DNA of 64,000 nt from Octopus vulgaris (lineage: Eukaryota). Below are positions 8-47,030 of the stretch, in pieces. Below the pieces are notes generated by a model. The model was given only the letters and a program-made list of their open reading frames with translations, was not told where the DNA came from and made no database searches. The DNA is taken from NCBI GenBank assembly GCA_951406725.2, contig OX597821.1, positions 33,108,001 to 33,172,000 on the forward strand. The letters are read 5' to 3'. Every line of letters starts with the position of its first letter. The first letter of the stretch is position 1. The translations under genes were made by a program, and so were the position numbers.

Positions 8-228
8 ATTATTTACATTCGACGGATATTTGTCCTCATCTTGTTTGTCGTTAACACAACGTTTCAGCTGATATACCTTCCAGTCTTTATCATGTGCCTT
101 GGGGAAATTTCGAACACAGGTTCAAAATTTCCCCAAGATACCTGATAAAGGCCAGAGGGTATGTCAGCCGAAACGGTGTGTTAACAACAAACAAGATGAG
201 GACAAATATCCGTCAATTGTAAATAATA
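8..228. repeat. Imperfect palindrome with degenerate hammerhead-like core
   Basis: 8-115 vs 120-228; CTGATAA-aggc...gcc-GAAA at 142-173. Confidence 0.8.
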
Positions 229-969
229 CCAGACTCTGTCTTTCATTTCATTATTTTACAAACTATATTTTTCTTTTCAAATTATATTGATGTTGTATTC
301 AACTTCTGTGTTAAATACCTTTATTTGTAGTAGTTTTCCTAACAAAAGCTCTTAACTATTGAATTCATAGAAAATACATCAACAATAATTAATTTAGGTG
401 CTATTTCAACTAAAGTTTGTTTCTTCATAAAGATTATTTCTATTGTGATTGTTTTTGAACGGGGCTTGTCTATTTCACTTGTACTAGTTTCTGAGTACGT
501 GTCTTTGCAAACGATCTTTAATTGGCACAAAAGACTGCTTTTTTAATTGGGCAAGAACTTAAAGGAAATCTTGTAATTTATACTTACTTTTTAAATAATT
601 AGGTCGGGATTTCCCGGGAAATAGAATGCAATCACAGATATTTTCCGGTGCATTTTTAGCCAAATTTCCAGGGATTTCCGAAATCCCAGAAGAAAAACTT
701 CGGTATAAATATTATTTTTATATTCTACCAACAAGTTCGGAAGGGGTCTATTTTTATTGGCATATAGAAAATAAAACGAAAAAAAGAATCATATATATAA
801 CTAATTCTTGTTACTAAACCTGTGACCAGTCTATTAATTTCTCACACACGTAGCTGCGTCGGGTCGGTACTGAGGAAATGCAAAGGGAACAAGAATGCTG
901 AAAACACTTATAGTTCTTTTTATTGTTTATTGGCTTAAAGGATTATTATTATTATTATTATTATTATTA

Positions 970-1280
970 TTACAACCATATCACAAGATATATTATGATC
1001 ATCTTCGGCAGAAAATCAATTCTCCAGTTTTTCAAATTAGATGGTGCGGAATCTGTTACAGATTCTGAATCGATTTTAGGACAAGAAGTGGATTTGGGAA
1101 GAATATAATACTGAAAAGACATCAATTTTTTGCTAAGGGAGTTACCTATATTCCAGTGGCCTTCAATCCACCTGCGTAATATTTTCGGCTCAGATGTCAT
1201 TCCGATGTATGTCCTTAATTGTTTATACAGAAACAACTGAATTCGATGACGAGTTGAACCGGCCTCAGGGGCTTCAAAAG
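970..1280 (-). CDS. Gene A exon 4 (PEBP C-terminal strand + Ser/Thr-rich linker + hydrophobic tail)
   Basis: Polypyrimidine tract ...ccaccag|(P)FEAPEAGSTRHRIQLFLYKQ...SFQYY...MIIIYLVIWL*. Homologous to YEGPSPPSGIHRYQFFLY...SFQYL of gene B. Confidence 0.85.
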
Positions 1281-1404
1281 CTGGTGGAAGGAAAAGAGAA
1301 AAATTATTTGTAGAAAGCAAATTTGTAGAAAACAAACACACATACGATGGGATCATGGCTTTGGGTAAAAAAAAATACAGCAGGAGGATCATTTAGTTAT
1401 GATT

Positions 1405-1551
1405 TTATTCAACATATCCCCTTCTCAGATTCACACACTTATTGCAGCAGTCCTTCAGTTTTACTAAGCCCTGTAAAAGAACTCGGAAGGTTGGACCTCC
1501 AACCAAGCCTTTCGCGACACCCTTAAAGGAACTTTTCAAGAACACCTCGTA
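1405..1551 (-). mobile_element. Mariner remnant
   Basis: Minus strand reads GLVKLKDCCNKCVNLRRGYVE*, like a mariner transposase C-terminus; TACGAGG-type end. Confidence 0.5.
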
Positions 1552-44100: not shown

Positions 44101-44689
44101 TCTTGTCGATCAGATGTACCTGAGAGGGTGTCTTTATTATGATAATCAAGGGGGTTGCAGTCTAGGGAGTTATGGTGATGTGGTCGCAGAAATTGTCTGA
44201 CAGGCATAACTGGGTTCTCCTGCTTGTGTGGTATGATGCGTACTGCTTCTGTAACCTGTCAGAGTGACAGATCTTGCATACATGTGTGTGACATGTGGGC
44301 AGAATTTTTATTTCAATATTGTTCATTGCTTCATTATGTTTCTGTAAGGCATGTTGGTAGAATATGGATACAGAAGAAATACACGATAAAGCTTCAACTG
44401 TTGTTCTGTCTTCACTTTTGTAGTTCACCTTTGTATCTCATTGTGCATTGTTTTGGCTTTAACAAGTTCCATCAACTGAACTACTTCATTCTAATATTTT
44501 TAGATATTTTCAATGATTTATGAAATTCATTTTTGGCGATGCTGCTGCAATGTACTAAGATATCTGGAACCGCTTTCAGTGAAAGACGGCTCAACTAATT
44601 GGTTCTCAATTATAAATAGATGTGTTCCATTCTCCTGCCCACAAATATCCTGTCTCCTCAATTGCTTTTCTGGTGGTCAATGCAGAAAC

Positions 44690-45060
44690 TAGGGATAGAG
44701 TGGTTAGGGAGAAGTTTCAGGTGTGGAAGCAAGGTCTAGAATTGAAGGGCCTTAGAGTCAATCTAGCAAAAACCAAAATCTTAATAACTAGGAAGGTAGA
44801 CAAATCACAAATCCCTTCAGGTAGATGGCTTTCTCCATATCAATGAAACCCAGGTACACAGGTTTATCTTTGGCTAGGTATTTCTCCTGCAGTTGTCTTA
44901 CCAGAAATCAGTTGTGCTTTCCTCTGGCACAAACCCAAACTGCATCCCATCTAAACTAACTCTCTCCCTAATTAGTTGGGCTATGACCCTCTCTGTGAGC
45001 TTCATTACCTGATCCAGCAACTTGATACATCTGTAATTATTCGTACCTAATGCATCACCT
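44690..45060. mobile_element. Two short RTE-type RT fragments in opposite orientations
   Basis: + strand WKQGLELKGLRVNLAKTK; - strand NYRCIKLLDQVMKLTERVI...MQFGFVP. Confidence 0.65.
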
Positions 45061-46593
45061 ATGTGTGTGTGTGTGTGTATGTATATATGAGAAGGTGGCG
45101 AGCTGGCAGAAACGTTAGCATGCCAGGCGAAATGCGTAGCTGTATTTCGTCTGTCTTTACATTCTGAGTTCAAATTTCACCGAGGTCGACTTTGCCTTTC
45201 ATCCTTTCAGATAAATAAAGTACCAGTTTCGCATTGGGGTCGATGTAATCGACTTAATCCCTTTGTCTGTCCTTGTTTGTCCCCTCTATGTTTAGCCACT
45301 TGTGGGCAATAAAGAAATATATATATATGTATGTATGTATATAAAACACCCAATCTTCCATGCTCACATGGATCAGATTTAGAGTTTATAGTATAATCAG
45401 GCAAAGGAGGTAATTCCCATTCCTTCAACAGGATATTAGGCATCAGTTTACAACTGCTGAAAATTTCAGATTTAGAGTCCTGCAGTGAGTTAGAGATCTT
45501 AGATCTGAGCTCTTTCAGCTAACCATAGCTTACATTTTTTTTGTTTTTGCATCTGTTAATATAAGGTGTGAATTTTTCAATTACTTTCCACTTTATTTTA
45601 TGTGGTATTGCATTAGATTTCAAACCCCATATGTGGCTAACCAACTTAGTAGCTTTGAGAAGTTCCTCTTCTACCATAAATTCTAAGTCACTATTTTCCT
45701 AGCATTATAATTTACGGTCTAAGGGAGATCCCCCCCCACCTTTTACTTCTTTATAATAACTTTTTGTTGTTTTCTGCTTTTTTTAACCTTCCAATTTTTC
45801 TATATACTTCCATCTCATCTTTTCTCATTTCTTCTCTCATTTAATTTTTAGTTCATTATGCCATGTGGGTTATGTTTGATGACTGTGCTGAGATGTCAGA
45901 CATGTGATAAAACATTGTTTGGCATGTTTTCAGCACAAGAAACTATTAGTAGAACATAAAAACACATATTGTGTCTGTTAAATAATATTTATTTCTCACC
46001 AGATGCAGTACTTTTTTGTTGATCTTACCATCACAGAGCAGTACATTATGTGTGTGTGTGTGTGTGAACATACACACTCACACACACACATATATTGCAT
46101 ATGTATATGTACCATAAATCCTCGAGCATAATCCACATTTTTTTCCAAAAATTTAAAGGTCAAAATCCCTAGTGTGTACTATATACGAGGTTAAAAACAA
46201 AAAATATTTTCTAAGCAATGTCCGAGTCTATTTGCTGTCCGGCAATGTTTATTCAGACGCATTTTGTGATGTCGGGCGTGAAAATACCTTAAGCTACGCC
46301 TGAAAGAAATGAAATCATAATAGAATCATCCATAACTTGCAGAACACAGAATAACATATAACAAAAACAATTTGCAAACATATTTACATTTCCATATAAC
46401 AGTTAAGAACATCACCATTATTGTATTATGCATGCACAGAAATGTTTGTTCAACTAGATGCTGCTAGCTTAATTGTGTACAACACAAGTTAGAGGAGTGC
46501 ATATTATACACAAGGTTTAGGTTTTTCAGAGGTACAGCCCCCTAAAAATCCTTTACATATATACATATATGTATATACATATATATATATATA

Positions 46594-47030
46594 TATATTA
46601 ATAAAAGGAATTCCAACTTTGTCTGATTTTCACGTTTTATTTACAATCTTATAATGATATATTATAAGATAATATATTATAATAGAATAAAATAAAATAG
46701 TAGAATGTTAAATATTCATTCTGATTGAACTAGTACTTTCATGCATTAAATTCTGCAATCTTCTGGTTCATGTAGTAGTGGTGACAGTCATGCTTCACAA
46801 TTTTTGACTGTGGATTATAAAATTGTGAAGCATGACTGTCACCACTACTACATGAACCTGAAGATTGCAGAATTTAATGCATGAAAGTACTAGTTCAATC
46901 AGAATGAATATTTAACATTCTACTATATTATTTTATTCTATTATAATATATTATCTTATAATATATCATTATAAGATTGTAAATAAAACGTGAAAATCAG
47001 ACAAGGTTGGAATTCCTTTTATTAATATAT
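46594..47030. repeat. Near-perfect palindrome, ~210-bp arms
   Basis: Centre ~46810; arms differ at only a few positions. Confidence 0.92.
46853..46897 (+). ncRNA. Putative minimal type I hammerhead ribozyme
   Basis: ugaac-CUGAAGA-u-ugca[gaauuuaa]ugca-u-GAAA-GUAC-UA-guuca; palindromic GUAC in stem III. Confidence 0.65.

Follow-up and report, generated by a model that had tools for sequence, protein, structure and literature searches.

Hammerhead motifs in a 64-kb stretch of the Octopus vulgaris genome and their probable origin in the pLTRs of Penelope-like elements

The window analysed here, a stretch of Octopus vulgaris DNA of 64,000 nucleotides, contains eight hammerhead loci that are very probably pLTRs of Penelope-like elements (PLEs), five of them from coding families and three from short units that likely borrow a Penelope enzyme, with the fold-backs likely forming at integration (Table 1). 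Judged from sequence, families C, D, F, G and H are the 3' ends (pLTRs) of PLEs coding for RT/GIY-YIG proteins, and families A, B and E consist of short tandem units that code for no protein and resemble known retrozymes. Earlier publications already describe hammerheads in PLE ends, pairs on opposite strands and tandem units of the retrozyme type.

Table 1. Positions of the features in the window (a point in the strand column marks features given without strand).
Feature	Position	Strand	Basis or remark
Family F fold-back, truncated pLTR of Penelope/Poseidon-type coding element	8..227	.	arms 85% alike
Family F minimal hammerhead, decayed (G8A, U16.1G)	137..181	+	family majority intact
Family H, 5'-truncated coding-PLE end, terminates in (TA)n, without fold-back	14255..14737	-	sequence comparison
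Family H hammerhead with C3 at 14377 and a predicted cut after 14304	14293..14388	-	descriptor
Family H GIY-YIG ORF, final 50 codons, in cis with motif	14588..14737	-	96% to L167
Family E fold-back, old non-coding unit, related to A	22473..22878	.	arms 77% alike
Family E hammerhead with U4C core and decayed stem III palindrome	22679..22723	+	family majority intact
Family C insertion: inverted pLTR, part of 3' UTR, pLTR, tail	23616..25398	.	Hydra-type motifs in coding element
Family C hammerhead, left arm	23811..23923	-	descriptor
Family C hammerhead of the right arm, with a predicted cut after 25038	24931..25044	+	descriptor
Family J second GIY-YIG remnant, diverged	25523..25795	+	sequence comparison
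Family G truncated pLTR including hammerhead 26368-26436	26367..26560	+	2-bp stem I
Family B fold-back	27064..27576	.	arms 99% alike
Family B motifs, U3-A8 core	27331-27388, 27252-27309	+, -	descriptor
Family J (ninth PLE family) GIY-YIG remnant, one in-frame stop	29924..30583	-	sequence comparison
Family A insertion at a (TA)n target, made up of an inverted copy and a short inverted end followed by a forward copy with a 43-nt tail	35420..36136	.	
Family A mirror hammerhead	35587-35631	-	inverted copy
Family A hammerhead, U4C core, predicted cut after 35920	35883..35925	+	descriptor
Family D fold-back and 27-nt tail, coding-element end	46593..47057	.	Neptune/Nematis-type Zn finger
Family D left-arm motif copy, broken core (U4A)	46726-46770	-	sequence
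Family D hammerhead, predicted cut after 46892	46853..46897	+	descriptor

The layout that the original prediction had described, i.e. stem I, core, stem II, GAAA, short stem III and UH, was found at all eight positions and every locus belonged to a repeat family; however, the loci are not all unrelated in sequence, as those at 22679 and 35883 (families E and A) are linked by a weak BLAST match (E about 2e-4) and a collinear alignment. The motif descriptor was relaxed after inspection of the window loci, and in this form gave eight matches in five families (14377-, 23919-/24935+, 27303-/27337+, 35625-/35888+ and 46858+) against 0.125 +/- 0.37 (never more than 2) in 200 block-wise dinucleotide shuffles, so that the proposed comparison with shuffled sequence favoured the motifs. 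Applied unchanged to 490 kb outside the tuning set, it gave 36 matches against 0.85 (20 shuffles). The descriptor missed three window loci: 142-180 and 22679-22723, which are decayed copies (G8A and U16.1G in the first, a broken stem III palindrome in the second) of families whose majority is intact, and 26368-26436, whose 2-bp stem I is also found in other copies of family G. Exact patterns returned 225 matches for the A/E cores and 2,894 genome-wide for the intact F motif, with none for the reversed patterns; the first-look candidate counts (354-2,746) do not give copy numbers. That the matches arise by chance in repeat DNA rich in palindromes might be suspected because the descriptor was tuned on the very loci it recovers, and because the proposed Rfam check went against the call, with zero hammerheads among 116 window matches at E<=5 (miRNA only, microsatellite-driven). 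Intact family F copies likewise gave no Rfam hammerhead match at E<=5. Set against the shuffles, the untuned DNA and the reversed patterns, however, chance has a negligible probability.

The expectation of Penelope-associated type I hammerheads with a self-complementary stem III held for the families of all eight loci. The type I core C3-U4-G5-A6-N7-G8-A9 ... G12-A13-A14-A15.1, U16.1-H17 is kept in the majorities of C, D, F, G and H, while B carries U3-A8 and A and E carry U4C, a described variant that also occurs in about half of the family D copies. A near-perfect stem III palindrome was present in 23 of 30 motif clusters, and the stem III self-duplexes of the six undecayed window loci are predicted at -4.8 to -11.1 kcal/mol. 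The predicted stem covariation was seen in ten A/E-related motifs, in which 92.6% of cells pair and 9 of 15 pairs are changed on both sides, a score reached by 0 of 500 shuffles in a test on related sequences with a structure specified by the analyst. The three helices also covary across motif clusters; young families vary too little internally. Assembled contigs of four sequencing runs contain the ribozyme family and a U4 variant, but cannot reveal ends or expression.

Evidence for an EN+ PLE differs between the coding families, whose clade names were set by the motif descriptions in PMC8557442: it comes from Pfam for D, from motifs, BLAST and Atlas for C, from broken copies for F, and from the endonuclease end only for H and G. 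In all five, the end of the ORF lies on the strand of the motif and upstream of it. The ORF motifs fit those descriptions of Penelope/Poseidon (F), Neptune/Nematis (D) and Hydra (C, G, H). The family D coding element (L091) has a 676-aa RT and GIY-YIG frame (Pfam RVT_1 7.6e-07, GIY-YIG 7.2e-05). That of family C (L094) has a 743-aa ORF with Hydra-type motifs which found no match in Pfam or PDB and a 22% BLAST match to family D (E 4e-05); its assignment as a PLE rests on the motifs, this match and its Atlas neighbours. Of 24 family F ORF-end copies, 21 run on into the pLTR head and 14 as far as the motif, and in family H a third GIY-YIG remnant of the window (14737-14588) lies in cis with the motif at 14293. 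The two GIY-YIG Penelope remnants originally noticed nearby are both present, but they are 81%-identical copies of a further family (J), and no tie to any of the eight motifs was found. The first 154 codons of the longer remnant gave no GIY-YIG Pfam match.

Family G is linked to an ORF at one of five extended loci. An 816-aa ORF beside one G copy (L169) had been taken as its parent and was rejected because its own 3' end bears a different hammerhead. Family G has an intron of 878 nt with GT-AG borders, and spliced retrocopies occur elsewhere in the genome (72 of the first 100 junction matches listed, from 317 in total); in some of these both fold-back arms are spliced, and the spliced copies have stem-I-lengthening variants of their own. 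Micro-homology deletion as the origin of the intron-less copies was rejected because the junction retains three bases that such a deletion would lose, and because it fits the GT-AG borders. An intron ending just before stem I is a feature shared with the metazoan PLE motifs of Cervera and De la Pena 2014 (PMC4209133). The many precisely spliced copies differ from the intron retention stressed in PMC8557442, PMC3846280 and PMC11167929.

Short copies of the family F pLTR start with a head bearing an A box and a B box, and a type I hammerhead comes after it. The A box was found in 22 and the B box in 27 of 40 heads, and 10 of the 14 copies that reach the head begin there. ARAGORN called tRNA-Ser in 2 of 41 heads, solely at a relaxed threshold, and Rfam gave no tRNA match on the head. 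The Sm-alpha element of Schistosoma is a pol III element of tRNA origin. It joins a SINE-like promoter to a hammerhead (PMC6765202), and family F short copies resemble it in the order of A-box/B-box head and hammerhead. They differ from it in that a coding PLE supplies the pLTR to which the head belongs, in having the minimal form of hammerhead, and in a tRNA origin that is weakly supported. We found no published description of precisely spliced retrocopies such as those of G or of a tRNA-like pLTR head such as that of F.

As predicted, most loci lie in inverted repeats (six of the eight, the exceptions being 14293 and 26368). The original prediction took this further, to dedicated non-autonomous hairpin retroelements in which the fold-back is the mobile unit and is processed by the hammerheads, and three of the six fold-backs do have arms 96-99% alike, in a setting where several families are young and numerous. 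However, across 141 distinct loci an inverted partner was present at 54, with spans of 220-1720 nt, and was absent within 1.5 kb at 87; junctions and spans vary from copy to copy, five families run on into ORFs, and in hairpin RNA the ribozyme core is predicted to pair with the antisense arm. A fold-back transcript would carry a single sense ribozyme paired in this way and would therefore form no cis dimer. These results largely refute the idea of a hairpin-shaped element, which we regard as very improbable. Instead, fold-backs likely arise when a copy lands beside an inverted partial copy of itself, a pattern that is known (inverted 5'-truncated copies beside PLE insertions are described in PMC8557442 and PMC3846280) and common throughout the Octopus vulgaris genome.

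The description of the elements as non-autonomous holds for three of the eight families (A, B and E) and fails for the five that are truncated ends of coding elements. Units of 352 nt (A), 559 nt (B) and about 373 nt (E), each with a type I hammerhead, form head-to-tail arrays without an ORF (nine A units, seven B units, E likewise in tandem). The open frame in B has 96 codons and no match to the PLE proteins used. Against a Penelope origin of these units counts that no coding partner for A, B or E was present among the fetched loci, so that their mobilising enzyme is putative. Loci retrieved as the best matches to the window copies are not a random sample. An RT ORF beside an A array (L166) was rejected as belonging to A, because it is part of another truncated PLE that follows a (TA)n run. 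Four A copies, and also B, have ORF matches upstream; these were judged, from their single, inconsistent occurrences, to be neighbouring insertions of other families. In their size range (350-560 nt), tandem non-coding structure and single type I hammerhead the units resemble metazoan non-LTR retrozymes (PMC7229834; bioRxiv 10.64898/2026.07.22.740005), and such short units have been termed non-autonomous PLE derivatives in the latter. Unlike retrozymes studied through circular RNA and cleavage, A, B and E are known here as genomic sequence; the units themselves visibly bear tails of PLE type and inverted copies, in contrast to retrozymes as portrayed in these sources.

It is a serious possibility, albeit one we do not favour, that A, B and E spread as circular RNAs, produced by self-cleavage and copied round the circle by a PLE RT, rather than as linear tandem transcripts. 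The permuted starts of head-to-tail 352-559 nt units would suit such a route, and circles have been shown for units of 170-400 nt in mussel, coral and axolotl (PMC7229834). However, the short units share their two 3' ends, their inverted copies and their (TA)n targets with the coding families, these features are explicable without circles, and linear read-through of an existing array would yield the same copies. The circular route is compatible with a pLTR origin if circles are found.

The insertions share the pLTR, inverted 5'-truncated copy, optional tail and (TA)n target of complex EN+ PLE insertions (PMC8557442, PMC3846280, PMC11167929). Tandem or inverted pLTRs with variable 5' truncation and an optional 3' tail were present, and two alternative 3' ends before a microsatellite occurred in A, B, C, D and H, with two also in G; tails, however, are up to about 95 nt long in B and 160 nt in C and H, where those accounts give 30-40 nt. 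On a pLTR origin, RNA would start at a promoter placed in the pLTR because 5' ends cluster, and would be bound by the RT/GIY-YIG protein. The enzyme would nick DNA rich in (TA)n, the observed target, and reverse transcription would begin at one of two internal sites, a mechanism taken from PMC11167929, giving the tailed and tailless copies that match the two observed 3' ends. Early stops and a strand switch would then produce a 5'-truncated copy and an inverted copy with the variable junctions observed. The template would be mostly uncut sense RNA, because copies extend across the cut site and include spliced ones. Cleavage by the hammerhead may be confined to RNAs in which two copies pair through their palindromic stems III, e.g. 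in head-to-tail arrays, and would release unit-length RNAs; in fold-back RNA the hammerhead is predicted to be buried in the hairpin.

Published data weigh against this last step: in PMC4209133 minimal motifs were not cleaved when present singly and were cleaved weakly as dimers, and 8 of 9 dimers showed no cleavage in the 2026 preprint (bioRxiv 10.64898/2026.07.22.740005). The motifs could be catalytically weak or dead relics serving as protein-binding or folding elements. The U4C change in A, E and about half of the D copies, the unpaired bases at the foot of stem II (one on either side in the 35883..35925 motif) and the 2-bp stem I of G all point this way, as do insertion in vitro without need of cleavage (PMC11167929) and the 5' ends, which showed no excess at the cut site among 46 truncated A copies (2 of 46 start near it, about the uniform expectation). 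We nevertheless consider relics unlikely, as the core, the C3-G8/U3-A8 swap and the stem III palindromes are retained over about 30 clusters, and U4C and a U10.1-U11.1 mismatch are known in active natural hammerheads (PMC3088659).

The window was originally thought unusually diverse for 64 kb. This was not upheld, since it holds 5 insertions against 3.4 per 64 kb in 490 kb sampled elsewhere in the genome (P=0.26). Extrapolation from the same 490 kb indicates that the whole genome is hammerhead-rich, with roughly 200,000 motifs (1.2-3.1e5), in contrast to the 2,000-9,000 counted with other descriptors in PMC4209133. The octopus motifs share with those of that survey the type I fold with a tiny or palindromic stem III, an extra base after A9, the U3-A8 swap, many variable families per genome and opposite-strand pairs 100-700 bp apart. 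They differ from its motifs in that many have an additional unpaired base before G12 and U4C is fixed in two families.

Tentatively, and as a combination that we think rather doubtful, these strands could be read together: about 200,000 motifs would belong to dozens of PLE families, the spliced start-to-tail copies of G would prove a processed sense template for inverted PLE insertions, a captured tRNA-type promoter in the F pLTR would spawn a SINE-like hammerhead element, and non-autonomous ribozyme elements would be born from pLTR transcripts. The spliced genomic copies bear on whether inverted PLE insertions have a sense or antisense template, an issue raised in PMC3846280, and on the reason for the usual retention of introns (PMC8557442). 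In repeat libraries for this group of animals, such pieces may be listed as SINEs, MITEs or unknowns. The dimer model could also be tested on the motifs, which offer a very large natural set of variants with U4C, U3-A8, unpaired bases on either side of stem II and numerous stem III palindromes.

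The type I hammerhead layout noted at eight loci of the window (contig bases 33,108,001-33,172,000) was present at every one of them (families A to H in the table, each the repeat family behind one locus). With a descriptor that tolerates the core variants U4C and U3-A8 and a single unpaired base flanking stem II on either side, we found eight motifs from five families in the window, compared with a mean of 0.125 and a maximum of 2 in 200 shuffles. As the descriptor was tuned on the window loci, the 490 kb outside the window (49 evenly placed stretches of 10 kb; L232-L271, L283-L291) is the cleaner test, and here 36 motifs were found against 0.85 in 20 shuffles. 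The window copies of families F and E fail the descriptor because both have decayed, whereas their family majorities are intact; family G, whose stem I has only 2 bp, also fails it. Exact-pattern searches of the genome gave 225 matches for A/E-type cores and 2,894 for the family F motif, and none for either reversed pattern; Rfam models matched none of these hammerheads. Active natural hammerheads are known with U4C and with a mismatch at the base of stem II (PMC3088659), and U3-A8 and an extra base after A9 have been described in motifs of Penelope-like elements (PLEs; PMC4209133). Judged by sequence, the window loci are genuine motifs of a known kind, i.e. hammerheads of PLE end-repeats (pLTRs) and retrozyme-like tandem derivatives, such tandem units having already been tied to PLEs in a 2026 preprint (bioRxiv 10.64898/2026.07.22.740005). 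At 26224-26255 (+), downstream of a family J remnant, a CUGAUGA core that has a short stem but lacks GAAA is possibly a decayed ninth hammerhead.

The loci had been called sequence-unrelated, but families A and E proved to be relatives. The claimed stem covariation was borne out: across ten A/E-group motifs bases pair in 92.6% of cells and both sides vary in 9 of the 15 pairs, as against 20-46% pairing in slid alignments, although one of the rows (L239) is shifted partly out of register and these are related sequences, so that no probability is attached. The six undecayed loci have a self-complementary stem III, with predicted duplexes of -4.8 to -11.1 kcal/mol, and stem III is a near-perfect palindrome in 23 of the 30 motif clusters drawn from the window plus 610 kb of other sequence; some of these clusters are over-split and one or two are likely chance.

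The suggestion of unusually high diversity for 64 kb did not hold, as the window has 5 descriptor-passing insertions against 3.4 per 64 kb elsewhere (resampling P=0.26) and the adjoining 120 kb has 3.2 per 64 kb. Counted by homology, the eight families are less frequent outside the window (0.9 per 64 kb) because they were picked in it. The 49 stretches held 26 insertions in about 21 clusters, and their motifs extrapolate to about 206,000 in the 2.8 Gb genome (bootstrap 120,000-309,000). It is the entire genome that is rich in hammerhead motifs, and the window is not special. Published counts are 2,000-9,000 in PMC4209133, while PMC7229834 gives about 5,000 for mussel and as many as 120,000 for axolotl; descriptors differ, making the comparison loose. 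A repeat annotation of an octopus names 31 Penelope-like families as recently active and, in the text covered, no hammerheads, and a literature search for hammerhead ribozymes in octopus found no such study.

Upstream, copies of family D continue into a frame of 676 codons that matches RVT_1 and GIY-YIG. In family C a 743-codon frame ends ~2.1 kb upstream of the motif; it has no Pfam or PDB match, but matches the family D reverse transcriptase (RT) at 22%, has RT/GIY-YIG neighbours in Atlas and bears a CxCX5C linker of the kind reported for the Hydra clade. For family H, the window itself holds the final 50 codons of the endonuclease (14737-14588), the end of a Poseidon-type ORF runs on into the family F pLTR in 21 of 24 copies, and one of five extended family G loci has an endonuclease end 2.2 kb upstream. 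Families A, B and E had no coding partner among the loci fetched; their head-to-tail units measure 352, 559 and about 373 nt, respectively, with arrays of nine (A) and seven (B) units. The two nearby GIY-YIG remnants are indeed present; they belong, however, to a ninth family, J, distinct from the eight. In ORFs at two loci elsewhere (L094, L169), RT and endonuclease are separated by long stretches rich in asparagine, as PMC3846280 describes for rotifer PLEs.

Inverted repeats enclose most of the loci (6 of 8), as noted. The proposal of hairpin-shaped elements was not supported: after removal of 14 rows that repeated an insertion through its second arm, an upstream inverted copy lay within 1.5 kb in 54 of 141 loci, with spans of 220-1720 nt that varied per copy, and more distant pairs (to 5.5 kb) enclose an ORF. 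In each of the five families scored, copies stop before a microsatellite at one of two 3' ends; the longer form has an extra tail of about 27 nt in D, 43 nt in A, 95 nt in B and 160 nt in C and H. The overall arrangement, 'pLTR, inverted truncated copy, tail, (TA)n', is the one described in PMC8557442 and PMC3846280, and opposite-strand motif pairs 100-700 bp apart had also been noted (PMC4209133). In predicted folds of families A, B and D the core pairs with the antisense arm, so that a fold-back transcript would be a poor ribozyme substrate; cis dimers could form in head-to-tail arrays. Further fold-backs (28916-29124, 59786-60012) and a 76-nt array (59954-61146) share a short motif with the family B 3' part, contain no hammerhead passing the descriptor, and are probably PLE ends stopping short of the motif. 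The value of these elements lies in their spliced copies, the tRNA-like head and the motif load across the genome rather than in the fold-backs.

Genomic copies extend through the predicted cut site. Of 46 truncated family A copies, 2 begin within 10 nt of it, in line with uniform truncation. Both observations agree with PMC11167929, in which the main substrate was uncut RNA and cleavage required the protein. In family G, a GT-AG intron of 878 nt lies close upstream of the motif and ends 10 nt short of where the window copy starts. Of 317 junction matches, the first 100 were counted by hand: 72 were precisely spliced, 26 intron-bearing and 2 other. The spliced copies must derive from a sense RNA template; an antisense template had been proposed in PMC3846280 to account for intron retention. 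All 23 spliced loci examined begin within 17 nt of one site, upstream of the search pattern, and 6 of these 22 insertions have an inverted partner, both arms being spliced in one. The family G stem I is 2 bp, and a one-base-shorter variant that lengthens it occurs in 19 of 27 spliced motifs and in 0 of 10 that keep the intron. Among the main texts covered by the literature searches, none reported spliced PLE copies.

The Poseidon-type family F pLTR begins with an A-box/B-box, tRNA-like head, at which 10 of the 14 short copies reaching it begin (30 motif-selected loci); the sequence hints at a tRNA origin.

Elsewhere in the window there is an apparently intact Helitron Rep/Hel, and two weak Pfam matches may be host exons.

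Features of the window and sets of loci examined elsewhere in the genome
Feature	Position or loci	Strand	Description
Family F locus	142		type I hammerhead layout
Family H locus	14293		type I hammerhead layout
Family E locus	22679		type I hammerhead layout
Family C locus	23811/24931		type I hammerhead layout
Family G locus	26368		type I hammerhead layout
Family B locus	27331		type I hammerhead layout
Family A locus	35883		type I hammerhead layout
Family D locus	46853		type I hammerhead layout
Family J remnant	25523-25795	+	GIY-YIG
Family J remnant	29924-30583	-	GIY-YIG
Helitron ORF	7078-11934	-	1,619 codons; Helitron_like_N + PIF1 helicase domains
Tc1/mariner element	61427-63021		242-nt terminal inverted repeats, broken transposase
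LINE reverse transcriptase remnant	2612-4027	-	Pfam RVT_1
LINE reverse transcriptase remnant	16522-18092	+	Pfam RVT_1
LINE reverse transcriptase remnant	30784-31272	+	by eye
LINE reverse transcriptase remnant	39288-39710	+	by eye
PBP match	54462-54806	+	Pfam 5e-05, below cut-off
Fucosyltransferase N-terminal match	6732-7109	-	Pfam 0.011, below cut-off
Family F loci examined	L101-L115, L202-L231, L294-L317		elsewhere in genome
Family G intron-analysis loci	L137, L140, L141, L145, L323-L352		elsewhere in genome
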